Source: an uncultured bacterium | Lineage (GTDB): Bacteria; Patescibacteriota; Minisyncoccia; UBA6257; GWB1-50-10 | Length of the DNA: 64,000 nucleotides | Reading direction: 5' to 3' | Assembly (NCBI GenBank): GCA_963768835.1 | Contig: CAVYJB010000001.1 | Span: forward strand, 152,420-216,419 | Part shown: in pieces, positions 4,037 through 51,206 of the stretch | Numbering within the stretch: position 1 is the first letter of the stretch | How the letters are laid out: each line of letters opens with the position of its first letter | Position numbers and translations under genes: made by a program | Notes under the pieces: generated by a model | The model's database searches: none | What the model saw: the letters and a program-made list of their open reading frames with translations, nothing else | Told to the model about the DNA's origin: nothing

Positions 4037-4228
4037 GGAACGTATGACATGATTCTAATGCGTGATAGAAAAAATGCCAAAAACCCTTCAAGATCCAGAA
4101 TCGAACCAGGTACTTTCAAAAAACAATTCTATTTCTCCTTGGAGCCCCGGAAAACTCGACCCAGAACCTTCTTGGGAAATACAGCAAAATCGACGCAACC
4201 GCGTCTCCTCGATACTACCGACTGACCG

Positions 4229-4300
4229 TAGCCCTAAGGAGGATCGAACTCCTGTTTGCGCCGTGAGAGGGCGCCGTCCTAGCCACTAGACGATAGGGCC
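4229..4300 (-). tRNA. tRNA-Glu (anticodon CTC)
   Basis: Reverse complement GGCCCTATCGTCTAGTGGCTAGGACGGCGCCCTCTCACGGCGCAAACAGGAGTTCGATCCTCCTTAGGGCTA folds as a cloverleaf with anticodon loop CTCTCAC. It is very similar to E. coli tRNA-Glu. No CCA is encoded. Confidence 0.85.
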
Positions 4301-18719: not shown

Positions 18720-22443
<3,724 letters not shown>

Positions 22444-31855: not shown

Positions 31856-34222
31856 TTAGAATTCCCTCAACCTTCGCCGTATTTCCTCTTCGACCTCCCG
31901 GCGGTCGCGGCCATACGCCCGGCGGGACCGTTCCCGGACCTCCTCCGCGCGCCCCGGATCCCCACGGATGGCGAATACATCGGTCGAGATGCGTATATTG
32001 AACGGCTTCACGGTCTGCCCCCGCACAAGAAGTCGCACGTAGGCATTCAGGTTGTCGATGTTCTGGAGGTCAGCGGCTCCGACGGTGGGCTCGAACTGCT
32101 TAGCCAGGAACTCCGCATCCTGTGGCCCGACCCGAAGTACCACCTCGCTCCCCACGTTCCCAAAAACCGCATCCCGAATCTTCTCCGGCAGCTGGGCGAT
32201 GAACTGGTGAGCCACCGTAAGATCGAGCCGATACTTACGCGCCTCAGATAGGATGGTCCCGATGGAATCTGTCGCAAAATTCTGGAACTCATCGATATAG
32301 AGATACCAGTCGCGACGTTCCGCCTCGCTCGGGGTATCGCCCCGGGAAAGCGCGGCAAAGAGCACCTTGGAAAGGATAATCATCCCGAGGAGGGCCATAT
32401 TGGCGTCTCCGATCTTCCCTTTCCGAAGATTCACCACGAGAATTTTCCCGCCATCCAAGATCGCCCGGAAATCCATGGCGGATTTTGTTTGCCCGATGAT
32501 CGGACGAACGTAGTCATTCGCAATAAAATTATTGAACTTCGAGGTGACATATGGTGTGAGGTTTGCGAGAGATGCTTCTCCTCCCGCTTTCGCGGCTTCT
32601 TTCTCCCAGAAGTCCTGGACGATGGGATTCCGAATACGCGCGAGTTTTTTCGCCCGCCAGGCGGTGTCTGTGAAAACACGCGGGAGCTCGACTAGGGTTG
32701 CGGGCTCTGTGGAAGCATCCTCCATCAAGAGGAGGAGTGCTTGTCGGAGATACTGCTCGAACATCGGACCCCCCGTCTGCCGGAGATCGTAGAGCTTTTC
32801 AAGGATCGCGAGCATGTCGTTCACGATGAAAGTTTTCTCTTCCGGACGGTCGAGCCGGTACTCGAGCATGTTGAGGCCCACCGGATGTTCAAGGTCGCCG
32901 GGATCAAAGACGATGACGTCCTCCGCGCGTTCCGCCGGAACGTTCGCGAGCACAAACTCCGCGAACTCCCCGTGCGGGTCGATAACACCGACGCCTTTCC
33001 CGCTCTTCATGTCCTCGAGGATGAGGCTCTTGAGAAGCGTTGTCTTGCCGGTCCCCGTCTGCCCCAACACATAGAGGTGCCGGCGGCGATCCTCGTCGGT
33101 CAGATAGATACGCCGACGTCCACCCCGGAAAAGACTCTCTCCCAGAAAGGTCCCTTCGGTGGGGGCATCGGCAGGAGGCGGCGCCTCGCGAGCCTTCAGG
33201 GCCTTGATGCGCGGGGTCTCCGTGAACGCCGTCGGAAGATGGAAAAGGCTCGCGAGCTCCTCACTCGAAAGTACCATTGCATCCGCGCGGTCGAACGAGC
33301 GGAAAATGAAGTCCCGAGTCACGGCCGCAGGGTTCCGAGGTATGATGATCTTCAAACCGTTGCGGTCGGGTGCCCCGAACTGGGAAAACCCCGCCGTGAT
33401 GCCCCCGAGGAGAGATTCTGCCTCCACCGGATTCGGAGCCGAGGTGAGAATACGAATATTCACCTCAAAGAGAGGTTTCCCAACCTTCGCTCCTATGGCC
33501 TCGACGACCGCGGCGTCCACTTCCTTCCGCTCCTGTTTCTTCTCTTTGCTCGCGGGATTGAGCGCTTCCTTCACGTCCCCGATCGTGAGTGGCACGGCGC
33601 TTCCGCCGAGGATGCTCTTCAAACCGGCGCCTTTTTTTAGGACCTCAAGCGTCGAGCGTACCTCGCGCGCCGCGCGCGCTGGAGCGGGACGGGCGACCAC
33701 CTGGAGCGCTGCGCCCTCCCCGAGCTCCTTCACATTCGAAAAACCCCCGAGGGTGGGTGCGAAAGTGTCGGCCCCAATCTCCCGGTAGCTCCGGAGCGGA
33801 AGCACGAAACGTTCCTTTTCTTTCACCCACGCCGCGGCGACAGACCCCCGATAGTTGAAAATATTGTAGTCCTCCACCGCGTGCACGTCCGCATCGTTCC
33901 AAAGGGATTGGACTTGGCGCGCGACAGCTTCCGTAAGGCGGTGGGGCACGGCGAGATAGAAGTGGATCTCCTCACCCACGTAGGGAACGGCCACCTCGAA
34001 AACAAAAGGCTCTCGGAACGACGCGAGAGCGGAGAAAAGCTGCTCCGAGAGGGCGATTTCCTTTACCACATCCTTTCCCTCGATGCTTTGGACCGGCAGC
34101 CGTATAAGAAGAAGCTGCATCTGGAGCTCCGTCATGAGCCGTCGGTGCGCAAGACGGCGCGAAAGGTAAAACGCGCCGATTCCAGCGGCGGCGATGACGA
34201 GAGCGAAGAACAAGACAACCAT
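31856..34222 (-). CDS. TraD/VirD4 (type IV coupling protein)-like membrane ATPase of the FtsK/HerA superfamily
   Basis: N-terminal TM helix; Walker A YVLGQTGTGKTT; Walker B LYIDEFQNF. Downstream HQFIAQLPEKIRDAVFGNVGSEVVLRVGPQDAEFLA matches the TraG-D_C/T4CP Q-S..QL...YG...I..N..T..FR..D..TA motif. Confidence 0.65.
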   Translation of the reverse strand: MVVLFFALVIAAAGIGAFYLSRRLAHRRLMTELQMQLLLIRLPVQSIEGKDVVKEIALSEQLFSALASFREPFVFEVAVPYVGEEIHFYLAVPHRLTEAVARQVQSLWNDADVHAVEDYNIFNYRGSVAAAWVKEKERFVLPLRSYREIGADTFAPTLGGFSNVKELGEGAALQVVARPAPARAAREVRSTLEVLKKGAGLKSILGGSAVPLTIGDVKEALNPASKEKKQERKEVDAAVVEAIGAKVGKPLFEVNIRILTSAPNPVEAESLLGGITAGFSQFGAPDRNGLKIIIPRNPAAVTRDFIFRSFDRADAMVLSSEELASLFHLPTAFTETPRIKALKAREAPPPADAPTEGTFLGESLFRGGRRRIYLTDEDRRRHLYVLGQTGTGKTTLLKSLILEDMKSGKGVGVIDPHGEFAEFVLANVPAERAEDVIVFDPGDLEHPVGLNMLEYRLDRPEEKTFIVNDMLAILEKLYDLRQTGGPMFEQYLRQALLLLMEDASTEPATLVELPRVFTDTAWRAKKLARIRNPIVQDFWEKEAAKAGGEASLANLTPYVTSKFNNFIANDYVRPIIGQTKSAMDFRAILDGGKILVVNLRKGKIGDANMALLGMIILSKVLFAALSRGDTPSEAERRDWYLYIDEFQNFATDSIGTILSEARKYRLDLTVAHQFIAQLPEKIRDAVFGNVGSEVVLRVGPQDAEFLAKQFEPTVGAADLQNIDNLNAYVRLLVRGQTVKPFNIRISTDVFAIRGDPGRAEEVRERSRRAYGRDRREVEEEIRRRLREF

Positions 34223-34240
34223 GGAGTGGGGAGTTGCGAC

Positions 34241-34657
34241 CTAAAGTACGCCCCGCCGCTTGAGCTCAGGGAGCAACTTATCGACTAGGGCATCATGTAA
34301 CGCATCCAATATAAACGGAGGTTGCCGCTTGGCCTCCCGGACAGCCGCTTCGATACCATCACGAAACGCTAGATGCACGAGACGGTCCACCTCCTGTCGC
34401 GCCTTCGGGTCGCCCGCAGAGGCGGCGAGGTAAGCGGGCAACTCGCCCCCATGGTCATCGGAAGGCGCGGAGGATGCGGGAGACGCCGCCGGGGTAGGAG
34501 CTGGGACGCCCCCCGAAAGGTCTTCCAGAGAACGTCGCACGAGCTCGGGAGCTGGAGCTGGAGATTCCGTCGTCACCGCCCGCTCCGCCTCCACCGTGTG
34601 CGTGATACGCGCAAGGTCGCGCTCCATTTGCTCGCCGAAATTCATCACTTTTACCAT
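34241..34657 (-). CDS. Hypothetical protein, probably co-transcribed with the T4CP-like ATPase
   Basis: 138-aa ORF 18 bp upstream of 31856..34222. Confidence 0.45.
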   Translation of the reverse strand: MVKVMNFGEQMERDLARITHTVEAERAVTTESPAPAPELVRRSLEDLSGGVPAPTPAASPASSAPSDDHGGELPAYLAASAGDPKARQEVDRLVHLAFRDGIEAAVREAKRQPPFILDALHDALVDKLLPELKRRGVL

Positions 34658-34680: not shown

Positions 34681-36240
34681 ATGGCGTGGAACTGGAAAAT
34701 TGTTCTTGGAGTCATCGTTATTCTCCTTCTCGCCACATTCCTGCGCCTCTACCAACTCCCTTCGCTTCCGCCCGGACTTTACCCCGACGAGGCGATGAAC
34801 GGTTCCAATGACCTTGAGGCACTGCGCACGCACGACTTCAAGGTTTTTTATCCGGAGAACAACGGGCGTGAGGGACTTTTCATCAACATCCAGGCGTTTT
34901 TCCTGAAGCCTTTCCTGGACCATGGGATTCCTCTGGAGCCCTGGATGCTCCGGTTCCCAAGCGCCATTTTTGGCATCCTCACGGTTCTCGGAATCTTCTG
35001 CCTCACCCGCGAGCTCTATGGAATGAGCGGTGTTCCGCCGGGTGCCCGCGCAAACCGCATCGCGCTCCTCGCCGCGTTCCTCCTCGCGACTCTTTTTTGG
35101 CATATCAACTTTTCCCGCATCGGTTTCCGCGCCATCACGGCGCCGTTCTGGCTCACATGGGGTTTCTACCTGACGCTTTACACATTCCGAGCTTTGCGAG
35201 TCCCCCGTCCGCGTTTGCGGTGGCTCCTCCCCGTTCTTTCGGCCGTAGTTTACACCGCCGGCTTCTACTCCTATATCGCGTTCCGCGCAACGCCACTGCT
35301 TTTTGCAGTACCTGCATTCTGGCTTCTCACGCACGGCTACCCGAAGCGGCGATTCTGGGCTATCACAGGACTTTTTGTTGTCACCGCAACCGTCGTGATG
35401 ATCCCCTTCCTCGCCTACTTCACGGCCCATCCGGCGGACTTCTTCGGGCGCACATCACAAATCTCCATCTTCACCTCTCCGCACCCTGCGCTTGACCTCC
35501 TCCAGAACATCGCGCTCACCGTCGGTATGTTCAATATCTACGGGGACGGCAATTGGCGCCACAACATTGCGGGCAGCCCGGAGCTCTATGGGCCCATCGG
35601 AATCTTCTTCCTTATCGGAGTTGCCCTCGGAGTCGCCGCGCTCCTTCGGTTCCTGCGCCGTCGGAAAACCCACATGGAAGCCGCAGCGGCGGATTCCGAC
35701 GTGTTCCCTTTCCTTCTGGCCTTTGGATGGCTCGTGGTCGCGGCGTTGCCCGTTGTAATTTCGAATGAAGGGTTGCCGCACGCACTTCGCTCTATCCTCC
35801 TCATTCCCCCCGCGATCCTCCTCGCGGCCTTAGGCGGCATACGTCTTTTCGAGTTCCTTAAAAACGAGTTTCACGACCACCCTGGACTCCAGCGCATGCT
35901 TCAGGGAGGCGTCGTTCTCGTTCTCGCCGCGACGGCTCTTCTCGCATACCAGCGGTATTTTATCGTCTGGGGGCAGAACCCCAACGTGCCGGGCGCCTTT
36001 AATCAGGACTATGTCGACATCGCCTACATGCTCCGCGCCCTTCCCCCGGACCTTCCGAAGTACGTCGTGGTGCAGGCGGGAGGTGTGGATGTACGCGGCA
36101 TTCCAATGCCCGCCGAAACGGTCATGTTTCTCACGCAAACATTCTTCCCAGAGGATCGGGACGCAAGAAATATCCACTACGTGCTGCCAGACCAGATAAG
36201 CTCCATCCCGCCCGGCAGTTTCACGGTGACGCTTCGTTAG
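34681..36240 (+). CDS. GT39/GT83-family membrane glycosyltransferase (PMT/ArnT-like; protein O-mannosyltransferase-like)
   Basis: N-terminal LRLYQL...GLYPDEA typical of PMT_2/ArnT; more than 10 TM helices. Confidence 0.8.
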   Translation: MAWNWKIVLGVIVILLLATFLRLYQLPSLPPGLYPDEAMNGSNDLEALRTHDFKVFYPENNGREGLFINIQAFFLKPFLDHGIPLEPWMLRFPSAIFGILTVLGIFCLTRELYGMSGVPPGARANRIALLAAFLLATLFWHINFSRIGFRAITAPFWLTWGFYLTLYTFRALRVPRPRLRWLLPVLSAVVYTAGFYSYIAFRATPLLFAVPAFWLLTHGYPKRRFWAITGLFVVTATVVMIPFLAYFTAHPADFFGRTSQISIFTSPHPALDLLQNIALTVGMFNIYGDGNWRHNIAGSPELYGPIGIFFLIGVALGVAALLRFLRRRKTHMEAAAADSDVFPFLLAFGWLVVAALPVVISNEGLPHALRSILLIPPAILLAALGGIRLFEFLKNEFHDHPGLQRMLQGGVVLVLAATALLAYQRYFIVWGQNPNVPGAFNQDYVDIAYMLRALPPDLPKYVVVQAGGVDVRGIPMPAETVMFLTQTFFPEDRDARNIHYVLPDQISSIPPGSFTVTLR

Positions 36241-36249
36241 GAGGTACCG

Positions 36250-37548
36250 TCAGAATCCCTGGATCTTGATTGAACCTGGGACGCTGGAATAGTCGATGTT
36301 CGTCGAGGTCACGAACTGGTTCGTGGGTTGCGTGACGGGGATTCCGGACGTGGAACCTCCAGTCCAGTCCGCCTGCCAGAACGCCGCGTTCCGCCACCGC
36401 GTGAGATAGTCCACAATCTGAAGCTGCCCCTGCGTGGCGCCCACAGGCCATTGTACCGAGACGGTGACTTGCTCTGTGGACGGATCGAGAGAGGTGCCAC
36501 CCCCGCACGGCGCCGTCCCCGCGATTGAGGAAGAAGAATCGTTCGTCCGGCATACGTCCTGGATAAAGAAATAGCGTTTCAAGATGTTGCTCTTATAGAG
36601 CCGTGAAACCTCATCGGATGTGAGAGCTCGGTTGTACCATCGCACCTCGTCGAGATAATCGTTCGCAGGCGCGGTCCCTGCAGGGCCGCCGTTCAGAGTC
36701 ATGATGGCACCCACCGGCACCACATAGGTCCCGGAACCTCCGCCCGAGGATTGCCCGTCTATATAGAGAGCTGCCGTGTTCGAGGCGAAGGTCGCGACGA
36801 CATGATAGAAACGCGCGGTGGTAAGGAGACCAGCCGACACCGCGAGGAGACTGCCGCCGGACTGGGTGGTCCAGAGCACCACGGCTCCGTTACTGCGGAT
36901 ACCGAGACGAAAACCTGACGTGCCGCCGGGATCACGAGCAACAAGAATGTTATTCCCCTCCCCGCCAGCCTTGATGGCGATGGGACGGGTCCAGAAAGAC
37001 ACGGAAAAAGCAGAAGTATCATAGAGCGTGCTCGCTCCTGCGGTAACGGCTGCGGTAACACCGTCAAACTGAAGACAGTTTGCAACCGCGCACGTTGTCG
37101 AGCTTCGGACAGGGCTCCCGACAAATGTCCCCGTGTTCGCGTTCCCCGAAGCATCGTAGGTCGCGGTTGAGGTGACCGCGGGGTCTTCGTCGAATTTCCA
37201 ATACCCAACGAGACCATATGTGGTACCTCCATCCATCATCCCCTCCTCGCCGCGGACCGGCAGATAGGTGGAGGTCGCGAGACCAAAGAAGTAGTGGGCG
37301 TTGGGGGAGCGGACGAGACCGTAGATATTCACCCAGTTCCCGTTCCCATAGGAACGAAGCTTGTCCATAAGATCCTGTGCCGCGGCGGACGCGAACTGGT
37401 TTTTCTGGATTGTCAGCGAGGCGCGGAGAATGCCCGCAATAGCGATTGCGGCGGCCGTGATAAGAACGCCCCCGATAGCGAGTGCGATAAGCACCTCGAT
37501 CAGCGACTGACCGGACCGAGCCGTCCGATAAATTGGTGAGCGTTCCAT
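36250..37548 (-). CDS. Type IV (pseudo)pilin with a laminin-G/ConA-like lectin domain
   Basis: Prepilin leader ...ARSGQSLIEVLIALAIGGVLITAAA. LamG-like region FDGVTAAV...FSVSFWTRP...ALYIDGQ...DEVRWYNRALTSDEVSRLY. Confidence 0.75.
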   Translation of the reverse strand: MERSPIYRTARSGQSLIEVLIALAIGGVLITAAAIAIAGILRASLTIQKNQFASAAAQDLMDKLRSYGNGNWVNIYGLVRSPNAHYFFGLATSTYLPVRGEEGMMDGGTTYGLVGYWKFDEDPAVTSTATYDASGNANTGTFVGSPVRSSTTCAVANCLQFDGVTAAVTAGASTLYDTSAFSVSFWTRPIAIKAGGEGNNILVARDPGGTSGFRLGIRSNGAVVLWTTQSGGSLLAVSAGLLTTARFYHVVATFASNTAALYIDGQSSGGGSGTYVVPVGAIMTLNGGPAGTAPANDYLDEVRWYNRALTSDEVSRLYKSNILKRYFFIQDVCRTNDSSSSIAGTAPCGGGTSLDPSTEQVTVSVQWPVGATQGQLQIVDYLTRWRNAAFWQADWTGGSTSGIPVTQPTNQFVTSTNIDYSSVPGSIKIQGF

Positions 37549-37553
37549 CGGTT

Positions 37554-40500
37554 CTAGGGCTTAATCTCAACCCCGACCATCGCCCAGGAATTCGCGCTCC
37601 CCAAGGTGTAGTTCGAGATCACGGCACCCGGGTTGGAGGTGAGCCCGTTCTCGGCTTCGCCCGCACCCGTAACATTCGTGGCCGCCGCGCCACCAGAGGT
37701 CACCATCGCGGAACCCTCCAGCGTCTGTCCCGCTCCCGCCGCAACAGTCGGGAGAGACTGGACTGCGAGGCCGCTTACCACAAGAGCATTACTCACGGTC
37801 GTTGTGAGGGTAAGGGAGGGAGCGGCACCGGAACCCGTAGCCGCCGTAACGGCCCCGATGGCACCGGAACCGTTCGAGCCACCCGTGTTCGTCGTGTTAT
37901 AGGCAGCGACAAGGATCGTGGCCTTCGCGGAGGCAGAAAGCGTCGCGGTAACAGCGCCCGAGAACGTCGTGGAAGCAAAAGCGCGCCACACCTCCACGCG
38001 GGCGCTCGTCCCGTTCGTGGAACTCGCGACGAAAACCCAGGTGAGGCCGCCGCCGGAAATCGAGTTCACGGTCTGGCTAGTAGAGTTCTGAAGAGCGACG
38101 GTCGCGAGGAGGAGCCGGTTCGCACCGCTAGTCGTGAGGGAAGCGGAAGTCACAGTCGTCGAACCCGTGGGAGGCGTCACGAAATCCGAATCCAAGGACT
38201 GTTGGGAACCGAACGTCACGTGATTCGCCGCGGTCGAACGGTTCGGGGAGACCGGACATCCGCCGCTAGAACAGAGATGGTCTCCCAGAAGATCGATCGC
38301 GGTTCCCGCAGAGCCGGTTGAAGGATTCATCGAGAGGAGCCGTGGCAATACCTGGAAACCGGCTCCCCAAACATAAGCCTTAGAATCGCCCGAACGCGTA
38401 AGCGTGATGGTGCCACTATATGTAGAAGTCGGAAGGTTCGCAGGAACCTCAACGCACGCAGTGCTCGACTGGACCGTAGTGGAAGCCCAACCGGCCACCG
38501 CACAAGAGCCGCCTGCAGTCGGATGGATGGTCGACGCCACGGTGCCAAAGGCACCCGTGAACTGGACAGTGCCGGTGGCAGACCCGAAATGATCTCCAGA
38601 AAGGTAGATCAGGCCGTCGGTATCCACGGCGTTGTACTCGCGAGCCGCAAATGGCTGGAGCGAAACGAGGTTCGTGATGTTCGGATAAGCGTAGAAAGTC
38701 CACGGGTTAGGATCGGACTGGGAAGCCGCTGTTACCTGGAGAGTGTTCACGCCTCCGAGGGTCGCGAGAGTCGTCGACACCGTGAAGCTGATGGAGGTGT
38801 TAGTCCACGCAGTGATATCAGGGTACCCCACGGTCGCCGCGCCTCCAATGAGAAAGCGGATACAGCCGGTGCCGGTGCCGCCCGCGCAGTTCGCGCGCGA
38901 GGCACCCGCAGCGACAGTACCAAACCCATATCCCGTGAGAGTAGCAGTCTGGTTCGATGCCCCCCCGTCAGGGGCCGTAGGATATGTCGTCGTCGCGACA
39001 TCGGGAAGAACAGTGAGCACCCCCGAAAGAGACGTGGGTGCGCCGGACTTCACGGAAGAGCCGGATACCGTCACATCTGCGTTCGCGGCAACTTGAAAAT
39101 CAACCGTCTGACCTCCAACAGGATACGTGGGGGTAGAGGATTTCAGGTCAGTTTTCACATAGAAGTAGTAAGTGTTTCCGAAAGCGACCGCGAGAGACCC
39201 CACCACAGTCGCAGTCTGCCCCGTAAAGGAAGCGACGGTCGAGCCGTACTGTGTCGTTGCACCGTTCGCGTTTCCAGTCGTGTTGTACCAGAGGGAAAGA
39301 TTCCCAAGATCAGCGCCCGAGACGGTGCCGTTCTCAGTCACCTTGATTGAGGTCACGGTATCCGAAGAGGAAGATATAGAGAGAGTGAAAGCAGGACAGG
39401 TGGAGGAAGCCGCACACGAAGTCGGCGCTAAGGCGACTACGGAGAGGCCCGAGGTCGAGGTCGTGACAAGGGATCCAGTGGTCACACCGATAGTGAGGGT
39501 CGCGGCCGCTGCTGCCGGCGTGTACGGTCCTGCTCCGACACCAGCGTTGTAGTTTATGTAGGTGTCGCGAGGAAAGATCTTGTAGTAGTAGGAGGTGCCG
39601 TTTGAGAGCCCGGTATCGGTGAAGGTGGTAGCGGCTCCGGCATAGACGACGGTTGAGGTACCGATGGTATTCCCCGCCACGTAGGTCTGGCCATCCACAG
39701 GGAAGTTCGAGACCAGTGCCGTGTTCCGAAGGATGACCTCTGAGTTGAAATCGCCGTCGCCGGGGTTCGTCCAGTTCAGGACTACCTGCGTATTCCCTGC
39801 AGTGTTGCTGCCCCAGGTGGCGTTGCCGGGGGCCTGGCGATCTACCGTCGTAGTTGTACCCGCGGTGTCCCACCAAGACTGGCCGTTCGTCGATGTGTAG
39901 CTGCTCACGTATGCGCTCACAGGATACGTGCCGGCGGTGAGAGCGGCATAGCTCTTCGCGGTCATGATGATGCGATACGTCGTGGTCGCGGTCCCGACCG
40001 GAATGGGAGTGCCGCCGCTGAAAGACCAGGTGTTGCCGGCGGGGACCGTTGTGGTCGCGAAGTACTGCTGGGTCATCGCATTGTTCACAATGGAGACGGA
40101 GGCGAGGGCTGGCGTACCAGTCGTCGTGACGGTGAGATTAGTGATCGAATCGGTGCCCGCACTCGTGTTGAACTGGAATTGGTCGGCGTAGACATTGGTC
40201 GAGGAGGGGGCGATGGTCGAGTTGGCGGGATCGGAACCGGTCGTGAGGAAGGTAAGAGCCGCCGGCGCGGGCGTGTACGGTCCTGCTCCGACACCAGCGT
40301 TGTAGTTTATGTAGGTGTCGCGAGGAAAGATCTTGTAGTAGTAGGAGGTGCCGTTTGAGAGCCCGGTATCGGTGAAGGTGGTAGCGGCTCCGGCATAGAC
40401 GACGGTTGAGGTACCGATGGTATTCCCCGCCACGTAGGTCTGGCCATCCACAGGGAAGTTCGAGACCAGTGCCGTGTTCCGAAGGATGACCTCTGAGTTG

Positions 40501-41768
40501 AAATCGCCGTCGCCGGGGTTCGTCCAGTTCAGGACTACCTGCGTATTCCCTGCAGTGTTGCTGCCCCAGGTGGCGTTGCCGGGGGCCTGGCGATCGATGG
40601 TGGTCGCGGGTGCGTCAGTATCAGACCCCGACTTCGCGTTTGTAGACGTCACGGCACTCACATACGCAGTCACAGGATACGTGCCGGCGGTGAGAGCGGC
40701 ATAGCTCTTCGCGGTCATGATGATGCGATACGTCGTGGTCGCGGTCCCGACCGGAATGGGAGTGCCGCCCGAGAAACTCCAAGTGTTGCCGGAGGGAACA
40801 GAGGATGTCGTAAAATACTGGGTCGTCATCGCGTCGTTCATGACGGAAAGGGATGCGATGGCAGACGTGTTCGCAGTCGTGACAGTGAGACCCGTCACAG
40901 AATCAGTCCCGGCGGAGTCGGAAAGCTGGAACTGGTCCTTGAAAACGTTGGTCGAGGAGGGAGCAACGGTTGAGGCGGAGGGGTCGGCGCCGGTGGAGAG
41001 GAAAGTGGTGGGAGCCCCACCGGCAGCCTTGAACGTGACCATGGTCATCTCATAATCGTCAGTCGCACTAGGTTGACTTGCGGTTGCGCTATAGCATCCA
41101 GTTGAACTCACTATCTTATCTTCGTCGACATTGTTATTAAAATAGCCGGCTTCCTCGGTGAAGCCGGTACCGGCCGTGGGCGTCTCGATCGCGTCAGTCA
41201 TAAAACCGATGATGGCTTCATTCGCAACGGTCGTCGTCTTACAAGGCGTTGCAATAGTGGTACCAGTCCCCGTGGTCGTCGCAATTTGGTCAAAGGGTGA
41301 ACTAGTATCGGCCCCGGAATATTCATTGAGGTAAATCTCGACATACGCGTTCGGTTGAGCGGAGAAATTTATGGTAATCGTATCGGTTCCGCCGGGGACA
41401 TTCTTCGCATAAAAAACCTGTTGGTCCCAATTCTCGGTATAGTTCGATGCATATCCGACCAGCGCGGGTCCGGTGGACGTGAATACATCTCCGAGTGTGT
41501 CAGTGATTGAGCTGACGGTAGGCCCATCCCAACCCCAGTCAACCTTAAGCACGACAAGGTCCCCGGCGGTCTGCGTGACGTTCGCCGTACTAACATTTGC
41601 CGTCCATGAACTTGGGGCGTTCGTGGTTACACGCTTGAACGCAATGGCAGCTTCTGCGCGCGGCACGGAAAATGCCAGCATTCCAGCGCTGCACGCAACG
41701 GCAGCGATAATGACTAGCAATGCGGCGTGCAGTCGTTTTTCTTCTATACGAACACTACGGGATGTCAT
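37554..41768 (-). CDS. Giant Ser/Thr-rich surface protein (1404 aa) with tandem FN3-like ~250-aa repeats and C-terminal IPT/Ig-like domains
   Basis: N-terminal signal anchor; repeated ...TNPGDGDFNSEVILRNT...TDTGLSNGTSYYYKIFPRD... blocks; extremely S/T/G/A-rich. Confidence 0.75.
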   Translation of the reverse strand: MTSRSVRIEEKRLHAALLVIIAAVACSAGMLAFSVPRAEAAIAFKRVTTNAPSSWTANVSTANVTQTAGDLVVLKVDWGWDGPTVSSITDTLGDVFTSTGPALVGYASNYTENWDQQVFYAKNVPGGTDTITINFSAQPNAYVEIYLNEYSGADTSSPFDQIATTTGTGTTIATPCKTTTVANEAIIGFMTDAIETPTAGTGFTEEAGYFNNNVDEDKIVSSTGCYSATASQPSATDDYEMTMVTFKAAGGAPTTFLSTGADPSASTVAPSSTNVFKDQFQLSDSAGTDSVTGLTVTTANTSAIASLSVMNDAMTTQYFTTSSVPSGNTWSFSGGTPIPVGTATTTYRIIMTAKSYAALTAGTYPVTAYVSAVTSTNAKSGSDTDAPATTIDRQAPGNATWGSNTAGNTQVVLNWTNPGDGDFNSEVILRNTALVSNFPVDGQTYVAGNTIGTSTVVYAGAATTFTDTGLSNGTSYYYKIFPRDTYINYNAGVGAGPYTPAPAALTFLTTGSDPANSTIAPSSTNVYADQFQFNTSAGTDSITNLTVTTTGTPALASVSIVNNAMTQQYFATTTVPAGNTWSFSGGTPIPVGTATTTYRIIMTAKSYAALTAGTYPVSAYVSSYTSTNGQSWWDTAGTTTTVDRQAPGNATWGSNTAGNTQVVLNWTNPGDGDFNSEVILRNTALVSNFPVDGQTYVAGNTIGTSTVVYAGAATTFTDTGLSNGTSYYYKIFPRDTYINYNAGVGAGPYTPAAAAATLTIGVTTGSLVTTSTSGLSVVALAPTSCAASSTCPAFTLSISSSSDTVTSIKVTENGTVSGADLGNLSLWYNTTGNANGATTQYGSTVASFTGQTATVVGSLAVAFGNTYYFYVKTDLKSSTPTYPVGGQTVDFQVAANADVTVSGSSVKSGAPTSLSGVLTVLPDVATTTYPTAPDGGASNQTATLTGYGFGTVAAGASRANCAGGTGTGCIRFLIGGAATVGYPDITAWTNTSISFTVSTTLATLGGVNTLQVTAASQSDPNPWTFYAYPNITNLVSLQPFAAREYNAVDTDGLIYLSGDHFGSATGTVQFTGAFGTVASTIHPTAGGSCAVAGWASTTVQSSTACVEVPANLPTSTYSGTITLTRSGDSKAYVWGAGFQVLPRLLSMNPSTGSAGTAIDLLGDHLCSSGGCPVSPNRSTAANHVTFGSQQSLDSDFVTPPTGSTTVTSASLTTSGANRLLLATVALQNSTSQTVNSISGGGLTWVFVASSTNGTSARVEVWRAFASTTFSGAVTATLSASAKATILVAAYNTTNTGGSNGSGAIGAVTAATGSGAAPSLTLTTTVSNALVVSGLAVQSLPTVAAGAGQTLEGSAMVTSGGAAATNVTGAGEAENGLTSNPGAVISNYTLGSANSWAMVGVEIKP
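39517..40770. repeat. Perfect tandem direct duplication inside the giant surface-protein gene (period ~752 bp)
   Basis: 39517-39845 is identical to 40269-40597, and 39925-40020 to 40672-40770. The two blocks are separated by ~80 bp of divergent sequence. Confidence 0.8.
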
Positions 41769-41781
41769 GATAATGCGAGAA

Positions 41782-42147
41782 TTAGTGTTTAGGACTCGTG
41801 GAGGTCGCGGGGGTGTTCGGTATGACCTTGGAGACGGCCCAACCCTTGCTGGTCTTCACGGCCCAGTACATCTGCCCGTCCGCGCCCTTAATCTGCTGCA
41901 TGTCTGTGGTGGTCGCGTTCTGATATCCGGGGATGTTCTTCACGTCCTGCACGGCCTGCTGCTCGGTTCGAACGATGGGTGCAGGGATCGGGGACGGGGC
42001 GGGGACAGGCGCAGGGACGGGGATGGGCGGCTGCTGATGGGTAGCTCCGCGGATAAGGAACCCAAGGACAACCACGAGGATAATAACAGCAACCCCGATG
42101 ATTATTTTTCGAGGAGGAAATGGGAGGTTGGGAATATTGTTATCCAT
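41782..42147 (-). CDS. Hypothetical small membrane protein with a Pro-rich linker
   Basis: 121-aa ORF; TM helix IIIGVAVIILVVVLGFLI; PVPAPVPAPSPIPAP. Confidence 0.4.
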   Translation of the reverse strand: MDNNIPNLPFPPRKIIIGVAVIILVVVLGFLIRGATHQQPPIPVPAPVPAPSPIPAPIVRTEQQAVQDVKNIPGYQNATTTDMQQIKGADGQMYWAVKTSKGWAVSKVIPNTPATSTSPKH

Positions 42148-42201: not shown

Positions 42202-43500
42202 TTAGGGAACTGTGAAGGTGAGCAGGTTCGATGCGTTGCTGTTCGAGGTAAGCGTCGTGGAAGCGACACCGCTCGTCGAGCCGGCAGGCACCTTCACACA
42301 TACCTCCGTGTCCGTCCACGCGGTCGCATTCCCGCAGGTACCGTAACCCACCATATTGGAACCTGTCCCTGCGGTCTCGAATACAGGACCCGTCGCTGCC
42401 CGAACGGTGAATCCGCTTGGCAACACGCCGCTCTGGCCGTCCGGGTTTACCACGGTCACGTCCCATGCTCCCGCAGGAGCTCCGGAAAGATTCAAACTGC
42501 CGCCTGTGAGACTCGTTGAGTTCGCGAAGACAAAACCGCTCCCCACGATGGCCTGCGCACCCCGTGAGATCTTCACGATGAATGCACCCGCCTGGAATGA
42601 GGAGCCACTGATTGCCACGCTCGTCAGATTGGAGCCGCTGACTCCGCTCGAAGCATTGATAGAGTTCACGAGAGGAGGAGGGAGCATCACGCTGAATCCG
42701 TTCGCAAGGGTAGCGCTCGCGTTTCCCGCAAACACAACGACACTCCAGCCGCCCGAGGTAGCGTTTGTAATATCGAAGGATCCACCCGTGATAGTCGCTG
42801 GTCCCGTCACGCTGAACCCCACAAGCGAGATAGGGGCCTGGCCTGACCGCACAAGCTGTACCGTCGAACTGGTGATAAACCCCGTACCGCTCACCGTGCC
42901 AATCGCCACAGGAGCATTATTCGAACCCCACGAGGGGGTGATTCCTGTCACGCTAAGCCCGACCGCGTTCGAAACCGTGAGGACTCCGTTCGCCCCGACA
43001 GCGATAAAACGCTGCTGAGAAAGATTCGCCTGCGAAGCGAGGAGGATGGAGAAATATCCGGAAGGAAGGCCCGTCTCGGGCGCGAAGATAAGATCCTTTG
43101 ATGTACCTGACGCGGGGTCCACAAACTGGATGCCGCGCCGGAGCGAGTAGGTGCGCTCAGGAGTCCCGGACGCAAAGCTCGGCCCGCTGAAAACGGTGTA
43201 CTGCGAGGTCCCCGTCGCGTTCAAGAAGTGGATGCCCCAACCATGCCCGTTCTCCTGGGTGATAGAGCGCTTCTGGGTACTCTGCACCACCGCCGAGAGC
43301 TCGTTGATCGATAGCTGAAGATTCTGGCTCGTGCCGTAACCGTTTAGGCTGAGCACGGAAATCGTACCGAGAACGGCGAGGATGCCAATCGAAATCACAA
43401 GCTCCAGAATTGTGAACCCTTCTGTCGAACGGGGCTTTCCTCCGCGCTCTGAGGGAGAAGCAAGCCCGAGGCTGGAAGGTGGCGGCAGGGTAGCTCGCAT
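42202..43500 (-). CDS. Type IV pilin-like (pseudopilin) protein with Ig/IPT-like repeats
   Basis: Prepilin leader ...KPRSTEGFTILELVISIGILAVLGT. Confidence 0.7.
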   Translation of the reverse strand: MRATLPPPSSLGLASPSERGGKPRSTEGFTILELVISIGILAVLGTISVLSLNGYGTSQNLQLSINELSAVVQSTQKRSITQENGHGWGIHFLNATGTSQYTVFSGPSFASGTPERTYSLRRGIQFVDPASGTSKDLIFAPETGLPSGYFSILLASQANLSQQRFIAVGANGVLTVSNAVGLSVTGITPSWGSNNAPVAIGTVSGTGFITSSTVQLVRSGQAPISLVGFSVTGPATITGGSFDITNATSGGWSVVVFAGNASATLANGFSVMLPPPLVNSINASSGVSGSNLTSVAISGSSFQAGAFIVKISRGAQAIVGSGFVFANSTSLTGGSLNLSGAPAGAWDVTVVNPDGQSGVLPSGFTVRAATGPVFETAGTGSNMVGYGTCGNATAWTDTEVCVKVPAGSTSGVASTTLTSNSNASNLLTFTVP

Positions 43501-43514
43501 AATGATTTGAAGAA

Positions 43515-44714
43515 TTAGAACTGGGTAGTGAGCTGGTAGATGGGAATGATAATAGAAAGAGCGATAGTGCCGATGATGACGCCGATAAAGAGCAGGAGCG
43601 CGGGCTCTAGAAATGAAACGAGCGTCTTGATGGAACTGTCGATCTCCTTCACATAGAAATCCGAGAGGGTTTCTAATACTTCCTCGATATGCCCCGCCTT
43701 TTCCGAAATGGCGATCAGGGTTGTCACGGTTTGGGGAAAGTAGGATTCGCGACGGAACGCATCCCCGATCGTAAGGCCTTTCTGAAGCCCTTCTCGCGAG
43801 ATGTGCATCAGGCTCTCGGCAACCTCGGGGTTACCGGCTGCCTGCGCAGTAATCTCCAGGGCATCGGTGATGGGCATACCTGCCTTGATGAGGGAAGCGA
43901 GGGTCCGAGAGAATCGTTGCAGAGCGATCTTCTTCACGACATCCTTGATCACCGGTATCCCGCCCAGAAGATTTGTGAGGAACTTCTTAAACACCAGGGA
44001 GGAACGGTAGAGATAGAAAGAACCGAAGATGAGCACGAAAGCAGCCACAAGTATGACGATACCGTTGTCGCGAAAGAAGAAGCCGATAGCGAATACGGCG
44101 CGCGAAAAAGCCGGCGGCTGGAATCCACTGTCCGAAAAGACACCCGCGATTTTTGGTAGCGCGAACGTCACAATGCCCGCCAAGATAAGCACAGACCCCA
44201 CGAGGAGCAGGATAGGGTAGATGAGAGCACTCTTGAGCTGATCCTGTAGATCCTTCTGCTTCGTGAGAGATTCCGTAAGATCTCCGAACACGCGCTCGAG
44301 GTTTCCTGAAGCTTCCCCGGCGCGAATGAGGTTGATCGTCACATGGCTGAACACCTTGGGGTAGCGTGCGAAGGTGAGGTAGAAAGGTCTGCCGCGTTCA
44401 AGGTTCGAGCGCACCTCGGTCAGAATGTCGCGCACGGCGGTCTTCGTGAAATCCGAGATGAGAATATTGATAGCTTCGAGGAGGCCGGTGCCGATCTTCA
44501 GCATCAGGGCCAGATACTTTGTGATGAAAATCTGGTCCGTCAGCGTCACGCGCCCCCGAAAAAACTTCAGGGCGCCTCCTTCTACGGCGCGCACGCCGAC
44601 GGGCTTCAGGTTCTTCGACGCAAGAAACGTCAGTACCTCCGCGACATTTGCAGCGTCCATCTCGCTTTCGACCACCCGGCCGTCAACTTGGGATGCAATG
44701 TAGTGGAATTTCAT
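43515..44714 (-). CDS. pilC: Type IV pilus assembly platform protein PilC (GspF family)
   Basis: Two GspF repeats; three TM segments. Confidence 0.9.
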   Translation of the reverse strand: MKFHYIASQVDGRVVESEMDAANVAEVLTFLASKNLKPVGVRAVEGGALKFFRGRVTLTDQIFITKYLALMLKIGTGLLEAINILISDFTKTAVRDILTEVRSNLERGRPFYLTFARYPKVFSHVTINLIRAGEASGNLERVFGDLTESLTKQKDLQDQLKSALIYPILLLVGSVLILAGIVTFALPKIAGVFSDSGFQPPAFSRAVFAIGFFFRDNGIVILVAAFVLIFGSFYLYRSSLVFKKFLTNLLGGIPVIKDVVKKIALQRFSRTLASLIKAGMPITDALEITAQAAGNPEVAESLMHISREGLQKGLTIGDAFRRESYFPQTVTTLIAISEKAGHIEEVLETLSDFYVKEIDSSIKTLVSFLEPALLLFIGVIIGTIALSIIIPIYQLTTQF

Positions 44715-46435: not shown

Positions 46436-46504
46436 CCTAGTAAATTATAACAGAACCTCCGCACGGCGTCGTGCGGAGTTGCGTCCCCACTTGGTTTTTC
46501 TCGA

Positions 46505-47056
46505 CTAGAGACTCTGGAGATCGCTCCCAACCTCGAACCAATCTGGTAGTGTTCCACCTTCCGTCCATTCCTTCGATTGATACTTCAGGCTTTCCATCCG
46601 CGTAAAGAATTTATATCTTCCTGGCGTCGTGGATGCTGAGAACGCATAGAAGCAGCCAGGGACGGTCCCGCTGCATCCTTGGTTCGCGCTCGAGGTCGTG
46701 TTCAGAGGATCGATGGGGAGACGGGAGAGCGGCGAACCAGCGGAGATGAGGGAAAGGTTCAGGGGCACCCAGCCTGTCCCGTTCGTCGCCGTCGATGTCG
46801 AGGTTCGACAGCTGCCGCCAGTCGGCGCAGTCGTGCCGGCGGTGCAAGTTGTGGTTGCGATCCAGCCCGCGGCAGCAGTATCCGTCACGTAGAGGGAAAG
46901 GGTTTTGTTCAGAGTTTCAAGATCTGAAAATCGCGTCCCGTCTCGACTCTCTCGAAGGAGTTCGGTTGGATTCAAAATCAAGACGACTACAGCGGAAAGC
47001 ACCGCGAGCACCGCGATGACGATGAGAAGTTCAATGAGAGTAAATCCTTTTTCCAT
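46505..47056 (-). CDS. Type IV pilin (paralog 1)
   Basis: MEKGFTLIELLIVIAVLAVLSAVVVLILNP.. prepilin N-terminus; C-terminus ...WFEVGSDLQSL. Confidence 0.85.
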   Translation of the reverse strand: MEKGFTLIELLIVIAVLAVLSAVVVLILNPTELLRESRDGTRFSDLETLNKTLSLYVTDTAAAGWIATTTCTAGTTAPTGGSCRTSTSTATNGTGWVPLNLSLISAGSPLSRLPIDPLNTTSSANQGCSGTVPGCFYAFSASTTPGRYKFFTRMESLKYQSKEWTEGGTLPDWFEVGSDLQSL

Positions 47057-47100
47057 AAAGCAAAATGATGAGCAGCGAGCGGATCGATGATGAATGTTCT

Positions 47101-47679
47101 TTACATGCTCTGGAGATCCGTGCCGACCTCATACCAATCCGGGACATTGCCGGCGTCCTGACTCTCTTTAATAGAATACTTGATGCTCTCCATGCTGGCA
47201 TAAAGCTTGTATCTCCCCGGAGTTGAAGAGGCCCTGAAAGCATAGAAGCAGCCATGTACGGTCCCGCTGCATCCCTGGACTTGGGATGACGTGGTGTTTA
47301 GGGGATCGATGGGTATGCGCGCGAACGGAGCGCCCGCGGCGATGGCCTTGAAGTTCACCGGGACCCACCCCGTGCCATCCACCGCGGTTGAGGTCACCTG
47401 GGCGCACGACCCGCCTCCTGGCATGGACGTGCCGGCCGTGCACATGGTCGTTGATGCCCCTGTAGGCCAGTTCGCCGCACCCGTGTCCACTACATAGAGA
47501 TTCAGGGCATTCGAAATAATGCTGAGATCCGAAAGTCGGTCCGCATCGCGTGTCTGTCGTAAGCGTTCTGCGGGGTCGATAAGAATCACGAGAGCCGCAG
47601 AAAGAACAGCCAGTAATCCAATCACGATGAGAAGCTCAAGTAACGTAAACCCCGAAGAAGCCGGGGAAGGATGATTCAT
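47101..47679 (-). CDS. Type IV pilin (paralog 2). The likely start is the internal Met (MNHPSPASSGFTLLELL...).
   Basis: GFTLLELLIVIGLLAVLSAALVILIDP; C-terminus WYEVGTDLQSM. Confidence 0.8.
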   Translation of the reverse strand: MNHPSPASSGFTLLELLIVIGLLAVLSAALVILIDPAERLRQTRDADRLSDLSIISNALNLYVVDTGAANWPTGASTTMCTAGTSMPGGGSCAQVTSTAVDGTGWVPVNFKAIAAGAPFARIPIDPLNTTSSQVQGCSGTVHGCFYAFRASSTPGRYKLYASMESIKYSIKESQDAGNVPDWYEVGTDLQSM

Positions 47680-47741
47680 TTCTGGCTTTATTATAGTGCT
47701 GATAACGATAATAGAAAGCTCATTGGTGCATAAATGCCGCT

Positions 47742-48308
47742 CTAGAGGCTGAGCGCGCTCCCTAATTCGTACCAATCAGGAAGTGTACCACCGTCAATGG
47801 ATTCCACATCTCCTGAACCCCCTTGGCTGAACTTTACGCTCTCCATGTTTGCAACGAGCTTGTACTGGCCCACCGTGGAGGTGGAACGAAAACCATAGAA
47901 ACATCCCGGGAGAGATCCGCCACAATTTGTAGAACCGTTAGAGGGGTCCATCGGGAGCTTTGAGAGCGGCGAACCGCCGGAGATCTTCGTGAAATCCAGC
48001 GGCGCCCACCCGCTGCCGTCGACGGTTGCGGAAGCCACTGTCGTGCACGGGATGCTCCCTCCGCCCGCGGCAGGGAATAAGGTGCCGTAGGTGCAGTTAG
48101 TGGCAGCCACCCATCCGCCTTGCCCGCTCGCGTCGGTCACCCACACCGAGATCGCTCCGTTCAAAGCCGCCATGTCAGAGATGCGCGTTGCGTCCCGCGA
48201 TTGTTTCAGAAGTTCGGCGGGGTTCAGGACGAGGATGACCCCGGCGGCGAGCACCGCGAGAATCGCGATGACGATGAGAAGTTCTATCAGCGTGAACCCT
48301 TTCTCCAT
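47742..48308 (-). CDS. Type IV pilin (paralog 3)
   Basis: MEKGFTLIELLIVIAILAVLAAGVILVLNP; C-terminus WYELGSALSL. Confidence 0.85.
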   Translation of the reverse strand: MEKGFTLIELLIVIAILAVLAAGVILVLNPAELLKQSRDATRISDMAALNGAISVWVTDASGQGGWVAATNCTYGTLFPAAGGGSIPCTTVASATVDGSGWAPLDFTKISGGSPLSKLPMDPSNGSTNCGGSLPGCFYGFRSTSTVGQYKLVANMESVKFSQGGSGDVESIDGGTLPDWYELGSALSL

Positions 48309-48316
48309 TTATATAA

Positions 48317-48327
48317 TTATAGCACAG
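48317..48327 (-). promoter_or_regulatory. Extended -10 element TGTGCTATAAT for pilin paralog 3; predicts a near-leaderless transcript
   Basis: The -10 ends ~8 nt upstream of the ATG at 48308. Confidence 0.4.
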
Positions 48328-48403
48328 ATAGGACATGCCGGAGAAAATAAAAACCTCCCGCTGTGTCGGAAGGTTTTTGTGTTAAGAGGTTACAAGGTCG
48401 GGC

Positions 48404-49012
48404 CTAAGGCGTCATGTTGCTCCCAAGCTCGTACCAATCCGATACGACGCCGCCGTCCTTGTTGTTGGACTCGACATCCGCCGTACCGTTCTGGCTGTAC
48501 TTCACGCTCTCCATGTTTGCGACAAGCTTGTACTGACCCACCGTGGTACTGGACTTGAAACCGTAGTAACAGAAGTTCCCTGTCGTAACGCTCAGGCAGT
48601 TCGCGGAACCGTTGTTCGGGTCGATGGGAAGCTTCGAAAGCGGCGCACCGCCGGAGATAAGCCCGAGGTTAATCGGTATCCAACCGCTACCGCTGGTCAC
48701 CGTAGAACTACTGACTGCGCAGGCGACCGTCGTGCTGGCCGCCATCGGGAACACGCCGTTACCGGTGCCGGTGTTGTTCACTGCGTTCCAGGTGCACGTC
48801 GAGGTTGCGGAGGGCCAGCTCGATGACTGCCCCACGTCGGCGGTCCAGAGGGCGAGCGCGCTGTTCACGGCCGCGAGGTCTGAGATGCGCGTCGAGTCCC
48901 GGGACTGCTTCAAAAGCTCGGCGGGGTTCAGGACGAGCACCACTGCGGCAGAGAGGACCGCAAGAACCGCGATCACGATAAGGAGCTCAATGAGGGTAAA
49001 TCCTTTCTGCAT
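48404..49012 (-). CDS. Type IV pilin (paralog 4)
   Basis: MQKGFTLIELLIVIAVLAVLSAAVVLVLNP; C-terminus WYELGSNMTP. Confidence 0.85.
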   Translation of the reverse strand: MQKGFTLIELLIVIAVLAVLSAAVVLVLNPAELLKQSRDSTRISDLAAVNSALALWTADVGQSSSWPSATSTCTWNAVNNTGTGNGVFPMAASTTVACAVSSSTVTSGSGWIPINLGLISGGAPLSKLPIDPNNGSANCLSVTTGNFCYYGFKSSTTVGQYKLVANMESVKYSQNGTADVESNNKDGGVVSDWYELGSNMTP

Positions 49013-49066
49013 TTTTATTGTTATTTAGCGTTCGTTTGAGGACGCTCGACCTTGATGTGTAGCTTC

Positions 49067-49077
49067 ATTATAGCACA
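49067..49077 (-). promoter_or_regulatory. Extended -10 element TGTGCTATAAT for pilin paralog 4, with a DnaA-box-like TTATCCACA ~25 bp upstream (49087-49095)
   Basis: Reverse complement of attatagcaca. The same motif recurs before several minus-strand genes. Confidence 0.4.
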
Positions 49078-49111
49078 GCCCGCCCTGAACCTCTGTGGAT
49101 AACAATATAAT

Positions 49112-49504
49112 TTACTGGGATTTTGGCGAAGAACCCATGAAGGTGCGCACGTGTTCCACGAGTTCTTCGATGGACATTTTCGCTTTCACAAAGTACTCCA
49201 CCGCACCGAGAGACTGACCGCGCGCCACATCGGTATCCTGACCGAGGTTGGAGATGATGATCACGGGCGCGTGCTCCATCTGCGGGTCCGCTTTCATCGT
49301 TTCCATAAGCTCGAACCCGGAGATTTTGGGGAGAATAAGGTCGAGGAGGATAAGGTCCGGCCGCTGCTCGCGGAGCGTCTTCATGGCCTCTTCCCCGTCC
49401 CGGTTCCAAAGGACCGTGAATCCTTCCTTTTCGAGCTGCTGCCGCAGGAGATTGGCCAAAAGCGGCTCGTCTTCGACTAGCAATATTGTTTTATTATCTG
49501 GCAT
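49112..49504 (-). CDS. Stand-alone response regulator receiver protein (CheY/PilH-like)
   Basis: ILLVEDEP...DLILLDLILPKISGFEL...; single REC domain. The probable start is the ATG at 49504; the ORF table uses GTG 49513. Confidence 0.8.
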   Translation of the reverse strand: MPDNKTILLVEDEPLLANLLRQQLEKEGFTVLWNRDGEEAMKTLREQRPDLILLDLILPKISGFELMETMKADPQMEHAPVIIISNLGQDTDVARGQSLGAVEYFVKAKMSIEELVEHVRTFMGSSPKSQ

Positions 49505-49676
49505 ACGTATCACCAGTATAGCACATTCAAACCTTCTCTAGTTGTCCCGTGCGGCATGTGTTCACATCCGTTAGGATGCGAGCCGAGACTTAACGGCTCC
49601 TCGGCCAATACCGTGTCCCCCGAAGGGAACGTTGCTTCTTGCGAAGCATACACTCTCTCATGTAATGAGTGTATCG

Positions 49677-51206
<1,530 letters not shown>

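Follow-up and report, generated by a model that had tools for sequence, protein, structure and literature searches.

A type IV minor pilin with an inserted LamG-like domain, a candidate pilus-tip adhesin, in a Patescibacteria pilus locus

The 64,000-nucleotide stretch of contig CAVYJB010000001.1 analysed here (the window) carries a type IV pilus (T4P) locus on its minus strand, and one gene of this locus encodes a 432-residue prepilin in which a class III leader is combined with a laminin-G (LamG)-like domain (Table 1). We interpret the product as a modular type IV minor pilin that is probably (with a probability of roughly 0.6) a tip-exposed, lineage-specific adhesin, most likely for a partner-cell glycan. 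The role at the tip may reasonably be inferred from two analogous cases, S. sanguinis PilC (PMC9934059) and TM7x PilX1/PilX2 (PMC11623550). Type IV pili are the leading candidates for the means by which the ultrasmall cells of the candidate phyla radiation (CPR)/Patescibacteria recognise their partners and stay attached to them (PMC11623550). The LamG domain is the sole hypervariable part of a well-populated conserved family, which makes it a concrete candidate for the specificity determinant. Judged from the relatives of the locus, the source organism would be a Patescibacteria (Paceibacteria-like) bacterium, in agreement with the CPR-like affiliation suggested by the first-pass annotation, which was made from the sequence of the window alone.

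The open reading frame (ORF) at 36250-37548 begins with an ATG at 37548, and this start codon lies 5 nt past the stop of a giant 1404-aa gene. The N-terminus of the encoded protein, MERSPIYRTARSG/QSLIEVLIALAIGGVLITAAAIAIAGIL (slashes denote the predicted cleavage site), consists of a 13-residue hydrophilic leader followed by a hydrophobic stretch of ~21 residues, and it displays the class III prepilin pattern ...RSG/QSLIE..., with Gly at -1 and Glu at +5. Residues 10-33 match Pfam N_methyl (PF07963) with 25.5 bits against a curated cut-off of 21.2. Across 34 aligned full-length homologues (31-46% identity), E18 never varies, and conservation reaches at least 90% at G13, Q14, S15 and L16; the conservation of a PilD-type cleavage site, which had been proposed as a check, is positive in these homologues at the level of sequence. 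Gly-1 and Glu+5 are also invariant in 23 homologues that carry no LamG domain. The AlphaFold2 (AF2) model contains a long helix (residues 16-70) followed by β-strands, as in the lollipop pilin fold. The Gly-1/Glu+5 leader, the helix with its β-rich head and the company of T4P genes identify the protein as a type IV prepilin. The earlier term 'pseudopilin' is not retained, as nothing points to a type II secretion system and the gene lies in a T4P-type locus. Position +1 is occupied by Gln (Q14, codon 37507-37509), with at least 90% conservation both in the family that carries LamG and in the one that lacks it. Gln+1 also occurs in a 136-aa pilin-like gene of the related locus L082 (NNG/QTALP), and the major-like pilins have Phe at +1. 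Archaeal EppA substrates carry Gln+1, with pyroglutamate formation.

The fusion of this leader to a LamG-like domain, the central claim of the first-pass annotation, is borne out by Pfam, where both N_methyl and Laminin_G_3 (PF13385, concanavalin-A-like superfamily) score above their cut-offs, and by AF2 and Foldseek, which agree. Laminin_G_3 covers residues 162-315 (E 8.7e-22, 78.3 bits against a curated cut-off of 27.6). The domain extends beyond this envelope to residues ~112-320, as delimited by the frame motifs GLVGyWKFDE (113-121) and DEVRWYNRALTSDEVSRLY (300-318), whose family-typical forms are GLVGxWKFDE and DDVRIYNRALSxxEV..LY. A family profile compared with Protein Data Bank (PDB) sequences matches 4qvs (E 3.7e-24, profile positions 124-327) and 5hon (E 6e-17). 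Modelling with a multiple sequence alignment of 15 sequences was mediocre, with a predicted local distance difference test (pLDDT) of 64.6, and the alignment of 34 sequences gave a mean pLDDT of 80.5 and a predicted template modelling score of 0.74, with pLDDT ~80-97 across residues 181-320. The best Foldseek match in the PDB is domain 4 of the Geobacillus arabinanase AbnA (5hon_A; target template modelling score 0.77, root-mean-square deviation 3.5 Å, E 1e-9), a structure crystallised with bound ligand. Further matches include the lectin-like domain of trypanosomal (trans-)sialidases and the Hc of TeNT and BoNT (clostridial neurotoxins). As far as prediction can tell, a LamG/concanavalin A (ConA)-like jelly-roll fold is present, and a generic pilin head, the other outcome considered at the outset, is not what is predicted for this region.

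The LamG domain lies within the pilin head. The ~200 residues originally ascribed to it prove genuine at ~210, and they are internal (~112-320) rather than C-terminal. A total of 110 well-conserved scaffold residues follow the domain, belong to no Pfam family and share the pattern RYFxVENVCRTND…PC…DPST…VT…W…DYLTRWKN..F.Q.DWSGG…STNID…G.IKI.G[LF], with a possible Cys333-Cys348 loop in the C-terminal head block. When only residues 318-432 were used to search 1.84 billion cluster representatives, 535 matches were obtained at E <= 1e-3. The best 150 of these 535 comprise ~60 proteins of 400-460 aa with the C-terminal block at ~310-450, ~50 proteins of 200-240 aa with the block at ~105-235 (some of which are 5'-truncated fragments), and 16 proteins with C-terminal extensions. 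Twelve of the short proteins were aligned; four are fragments, and eight (P0114, P0115, P0119, P0122, P0130, P0140, P0144 and P0151) are complete LamG-less pilins that keep the GQSL[IV]E leader, the helix, the W.N.Y..KG…Y block and the C-terminal block. BLAST pairs residues 11-111 of the window protein with residues 16-117 of P0119, and residues 325-432 with 119-219, so that ~213 residues (112-324) are inserted between the neighbouring scaffold positions 117 and 119. P0119 is also found in the slot of the LamG pilin, since the order in L082 is PilC, a 154-aa pilin, P0119 and PilM; the 154-aa pilin is homologous to the N-terminus of the 432-aa modular pilin that follows PilC in the window (42202-43500). 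Because the flanking residues are adjacent in LamG-less homologues, the LamG domain is, at the level of sequence, an insertion into a conserved Patescibacteria minor-pilin head rather than a C-terminal graft. The insertion of LamG into a Patescibacteria-specific scaffold of ~220 aa, which also exists without it, is a modestly new descriptive point.

Sequence variability is concentrated in the LamG core. The majority-residue frequency is 0.76 in α1N, the most conserved block, 0.63-0.72 in the LamG frame motifs and 0.57-0.59 in the rest of the scaffold; the LamG core (residues 161-296) is the most variable part, with a frequency of 0.35, an entropy of 2.6 bits and several indels. The conserved residues of the domain are framework positions that PF13385 shares in general (W117, D120, E121, D132, C153, C158, W186, D300, R303 and Y305). 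To judge from the alignment, such a core would look like a lineage-specific ligand-binding surface. Targeted diversification of the core by a diversity-generating retroelement was considered and rejected, as no direct repeat ties the gene to the rest of the 30-50 kb; Pfam scans, which covered most of the larger window ORFs, turned up no reverse transcriptase. Conservation extends over the final ~45 residues (W395 invariant; at least 90% for G397, G398 and G425), yet both AF2 runs give them pLDDT <50. This tail may be a docking or linker element. Some homologues carry large C-terminal extensions past it (for example 518, 531, 671 and 724 aa).

The position of the gene is conserved as well. The locus in the window reads, along the minus strand, response regulator, four major-like pilins, PilB, PilC, 432-aa modular pilin, 121-aa ORF, giant gene and LamG pilin; the LamG pilin gene shares the strand and the operon-like packing of PilB, PilC and five other pilins. 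By transcription it is the last, 3'-most gene of this minus-strand operon, not the first of the T4P locus as initially described. The comparison set comprised 24 related loci (L002-L025), labelled Paceibacterota, Jorgensenbacteria, Minisyncoccia, 'Microgenomatus' and others. The order conserved among them is response regulator, one to three major-like pilins, PilB, PilC, modular pilin and LamG pilin, followed by a 138-aa protein, a 788-aa VirD4/TraD-like ATPase, GtrA and GT2, and the synteny from PilB through PilC and the modular pilin to the LamG pilin is kept in ~20 loci.

LamG-bearing pilins are not exceptional, contrary to the initial statement that lectin modules are seldom found on minor pilins. 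A census of modular pilins counted more than 1,200 proteins, many of them from CPR phyla, in 264 architectures, and N_methyl plus PF13385 is among the 15 most frequent architectures (PMC8179133). In all ten related loci tested, the pilin at the slot of the window's 432-aa modular pilin carries a C-terminal Laminin_G_3 domain (E 6e-21 to 3e-29), and BLAST adds four more cases at this slot (L002a/b, L022a and L024a). The module of this partner pilin is absent in L082, where the pilin is a bare 154 aa, and exceeds 1,100 aa in L018; in L017, even a major-like pilin ends in a LamG domain. The survey of LamG-pilin fusions among relatives, suggested as a check, therefore finds them standard in the clade, on minor and on one major-like pilin. 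If anything, it is the window genome that seems to be the exception, its first modular pilin having given up LamG for other repeats. Independent pilin-LamG fusions were found in Phycisphaerae, Pirellulales and other Paceibacterota. A strict regular-expression search detected a class III leader in just 5 of 56 distant LamG relatives, and hence most LamG_3 proteins outside the LamG pilin family are not pilins. Members of the family are annotated at NCBI as 'LamG-like jellyroll fold domain-containing protein' and at JGI as prepilin or PulG. Modular lectin pilins and their abundance in CPR are already published, and the current understanding is unchanged; the mapped insertion point, together with the routine presence of LamG on both minor pilins after PilC, provides an annotation rule for CPR pilus loci.

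Compared with the modular pilins of Raynaud et al. 2021 (PMC8179133), the window protein shares a class III signal peptide and a ConA-like/LamG module foreign to T4P, and for pilins that combine N_methyl (IPR012902) with PF13385 the prediction is that the filament displays a carbohydrate-binding module (PMC8179133). In contrast to that definition, which takes the module to be a C-terminal graft, the LamG domain of the window protein lies inside the pilin head and is followed by the 110 scaffold residues. Its topology is nearer to that of GspK, with a domain in the pilin sheet, than to the 'pilin-linker-module' arrangement of S. sanguinis PilB/PilC (PMC8179133). S. sanguinis PilC is a minor pilin with a ConA-like lectin that binds glycans in the tip PilABC complex (Shahin et al. 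2023, PMC9934059). Both proteins are minor pilins of monoderm T4P with a ConA-like module, Glu5, a length of ~430-480 aa and a second modular pilin gene alongside; PilC differs in its order of short pilin moiety, Ig-like module and C-terminal lectin. It is neither among the 60 listed of the 66 PDB profile matches (E <= 5) nor among the 50 listed Foldseek matches, and the sequences point to independent acquisition and not to orthology. In TM7x, the lectin-like PilX1/PilX2 are accompanied by a host-binding defect upon pilX2 deletion and by sugar-inhibitable host binding (PMC11623550). Like the window protein, they are the largest pilins of CPR T4P loci, carry lectin-like β domains behind non-canonical leaders and are proposed host-glycan tip proteins (PMC11623550). 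The PilX1 domain, an L-type-lectin-like jelly roll (PMC11623550), is C-terminal and was missed by CD-search, whereas that of the window protein is internal and a clear PF13385 match; the two were compared by description only. An outward laminin-G-like domain at the filament end is likewise found in TafC, the first subunit of haloarchaeal Tat-fimbriae, which has been proposed as adhesin and assembly initiator (PMC11821415). TafC belongs to a Tat-exported filament assembled by donor-strand exchange and is no type IV pilin (PMC11821415). Membership of its family (NCBIfam NF052521) was rejected at 29.7 bits against a cut-off of 410, with a match to the LamG region only, so that the resemblance is one of analogy only.

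A tip adhesin could arise as follows. The prepilin would be held in the membrane by its α1N helix, and a PilD-type peptidase would cut after Gly13, with Glu+5 letting the subunit pack normally in the filament core. The protein would be loaded on PilC early in PilB-driven assembly, alongside the upstream modular minor pilin. It would end at or near the pilus tip, because the bulky head of ~330 residues cannot pack in the filament body. The LamG domain would then project outward and bind a surface ligand, most probably a host or partner-cell glycan, and its hypervariable core would set the lineage-specific specificity. Several points weigh against this interpretation. Ligand binding rests on analogy, the episymbiotic lifestyle of the organism is assumed, and no conserved binding-site residues stand out in the homologue alignment beyond the framework motifs of PF13385. 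Relaxed constraint would give the same hypervariable core, and the alignment does not separate the two. Glu+5 is kept, whereas the capping GspK and S. sanguinis PilA lack it, so the protein is not necessarily the topmost subunit. Gln+1 is unusual among bacterial pilins, and processing may thus be atypical; SignalP failed on TM7x PilX1/PilX2 (PMC11623550). No PilD, PilM/N/O or PilT was detected among the larger ORFs of the 64-kb window, most but not all of which were scanned against Pfam.

A purely architectural role, in which a core minor pilin primes or caps the filament like GspK/PilX of the HIJK complex and the LamG domain is a bulky cap or spacer or attaches to another part of the pilus, for instance the modular pilin nearby or the giant protein, seems rather unlikely. 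It would account for the fixed slot after PilC in ~20 loci and for the stronger conservation of the scaffold and tail relative to the LamG domain, and the function of the scaffold does not need LamG, because LamG-less versions occupy the same slot. The K (pseudo)pilins GspK/PilX of the HIJK tip complex likewise carry an insert in the pilin β-sheet (PMC8179133), are too bulky for the filament body and are operon-conserved. The insert of GspK, however, is an α-domain, and GspK lacks the Glu5 that is invariant in the window pilin family; there is also no Pfam T2SSK match, and membership of the GspK/T2SSK family was rejected. LamG/ConA-like modules on pilins or fimbriae are adhesive where tested (S. 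sanguinis PilC), and LamG has been acquired repeatedly and independently on three pilin scaffolds of the clade, which argues for a selected outward function.

It is very unlikely that the protein is an unpolymerised surface lectin whose class III-like N-terminus does no more than anchor it in the membrane or form a short pseudopilus stub. The strictly conserved Gly-1, Glu+5 and hydrophobic α1N constitute a signature for filament packing, the N_methyl match is above its cut-off and the gene follows its neighbour in the pilus operon at a distance of only 5 nt, even though the Gln+1 leader is non-canonical, the scanned window ORFs lack PilD and the accessory-domain pilins of TM7x have no predicted PilD signal (PMC11623550). 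A role in a DNA-uptake (competence) pilus, with the LamG tip pilin capturing DNA or another substrate for translocation by the VirD4/TraD/HerA-like ATPase, is highly improbable. The 138-aa protein and the 788-aa ATPase do follow the gene in 16 of the 24 related loci, and CPR bacteria, which lack nucleotide biosynthesis, are naturally competent (PMC11623550). LamG folds, however, have no known role as DNA receptors, the pilins known to bind DNA rely on different modules, a convergent gene (34681-36240) separates the ATPase from the pilin gene in the window, and T4P-2 mutants of TM7x stayed competent (PMC11623550).

A broader proposal, which we regard as distinctly unlikely in its entirety, treats the two minor pilins after PilC in Paceibacteria-type T4P loci as a swappable tip cassette, in which the GspH-like and the ~220-aa scaffolds would bear interchangeable receptor-binding modules that set the partner or host range. 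The modules would comprise LamG, inserted or C-terminal, Ig/IPT repeats and larger extensions. The tail of the LamG pilin (residues 392-432) would dock by folding on a partner such as the neighbouring pilin or a giant non-pilin adhesin, a PilY1-like arrangement in a monoderm. Gln+1 may mark distinct processing, the route of which might be pyroglutamate formation as in archaeal EppA substrates.

Table 1. Positions of the LamG minor pilin, its parts and the other genes of the pilus locus in the window (Gly-1 and Glu+5 are numbered from the predicted cleavage site)
Feature	Position	Strand	Basis
LamG minor prepilin, whole gene, 432 aa	36250..37548	-	ORF; Pfam N_methyl + Laminin_G_3; ~31 full-length homologues of the same architecture, 31-46% identity
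Leader peptide, residues 1-13 (MERSPIYRTARSG); last residue is Gly-1 of the predicted prepilin-peptidase site	37510..37548	-	Sequence; G13 conservation; cleavage predicted
α1 helix, residues 14-76; QSLIE mature N-terminus, Glu+5 = E18, hydrophobic α1N	37321..37509	-	AF2 helix 16-70; E18 invariant
Pilin head, N-terminal part, residues 77-111 (W.N.Y.L..KG...YF block)	37216..37320	-	AF2 strands 86-91, 94-100, 102-106; alignment to P0119
Inserted LamG/ConA-like jelly roll (predicted), residues 112-320 (core 161-296 hypervariable)	36589..37215	-	PF13385; PDB profile matches; Foldseek; missing from ~220-aa homologues
Pilin head, C-terminal part, residues 321-391 (RYFxVENVCRTND…PC…DPST…DYLTRW.N)	36376..36588	-	AF2 strands 321-335, 342-345, 352-369, 372-383, pLDDT 84-95
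Conserved C-terminal tail, residues 392-432 (Q.DW[ST]GG.G..GP.T.P…STNID…G.IKIqG[FL])	36253..36375	-	Alignment; pLDDT <50
Giant 1404-aa secreted repeat protein, Sec-type signal peptide	37554-41768	-	No Pfam or NCBIfam match
121-aa transmembrane protein	41782-42147	-	No Pfam or NCBIfam match
Partner modular minor pilin, 432 aa, G/FTILE leader, GspH/ComGD-like N-terminus	42202..43500	-	Sequence
PilC platform protein	43515-44714	-	Pfam T2SSF, E 2.7e-50
PilB assembly ATPase	44720-46435	-	Pfam T2SSE, E 8e-117, + MshEN
Four paralogous major-like pilins (KG/FTLIEL leaders) and response-regulator gene	46505..49513	-	Pfam N_methyl, Response_reg; sequences; repeat families D1, D3, D4
Response regulator, head of locus	49112-49513	-	Pfam Response_reg

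The partner pilin combines a GspH/ComGD-like minor pilin of ~150 aa with a swapped C-terminal module, a Pfam-negative extension that is read from its sequence as immunoglobulin (Ig)/IPT-like repeats; in relatives, the gene at this slot keeps the N-terminal ~150 aa and joins them to LamG_3. The giant gene and the 121-aa ORF form an insert (37554..42147) between the two modular pilins that is specific to the window. The first-pass annotation placed the LamG pilin next to the giant gene in a T4P locus, which is true of the window, beside the PilB/PilC locus, and does not extend to the ~20 syntenic loci, where neither the giant gene nor the 121-aa ORF stands at this position. The giant gene was accordingly rejected as a conserved partner, the 1319-aa pil432-like gene of L018 being the exception; a local association with the LamG pilin is possible. 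The interval from PilC to the LamG pilin is a variable hot spot that holds one or two modular pilins, including the 1319-aa version in L018. A 753-nt tandem duplication within the giant gene is 99% identical over 300 nt, and the gene itself resembles a recent insertion or expansion at the variable site that separates the two modular pilins.

On the other side, the convergent 519-aa multi-transmembrane gene at 34681-36240 ends 9 nt from the LamG pilin gene. The soluble 138-aa protein and the 788-aa ATPase, which in the related loci are usually followed by GT2 and in several also by GtrA, occupy 31856-34657 (minus strand) in the window. The ATPase is VirD4/TraD/HerA-like and N-terminally anchored by a transmembrane segment (DUF87, TrwB_AAD_bind). 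The linkage between the T4P locus and this coupling-protein-like ATPase is conserved, possibly for DNA uptake.

Promoter and terminator scans yielded no more sites than the shuffled expectation, and no terminator was found after the LamG pilin gene. Strong terminator-like hairpins lie at 46457-46478 and 48349-48378 (minus strand), after two major-like pilin genes and upstream of PilB; they fit attenuation, with high pilin and lower machinery expression, but such sites are overall no more numerous than expected from shuffled sequence.

Directly upstream of the pilus locus, a complete and uninterrupted 16S rRNA gene is located at 49677-51205 (minus strand, 1368 bits), whereas the whole 64-kb window yielded no 23S rRNA gene. 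The rpoC gene (18720-22443, minus strand) is split into three overlapping frames, 21556-22443, 21080-21646 and 18720-21089. The two frameshifts in this essential gene suggest indel errors of the assembly, a pseudogene or a programmed shift being less likely, and other ORF calls of the window may suffer from such errors too. Near the start of the window, a large serine recombinase with Resolvase, Recombinase and Zn_ribbon_recom domains (1847-3229, plus strand) is followed ~1 kb downstream, past one intervening gene, by a tRNA-Glu gene (4228-4300), and the two may mark the boundary of an integrated element.

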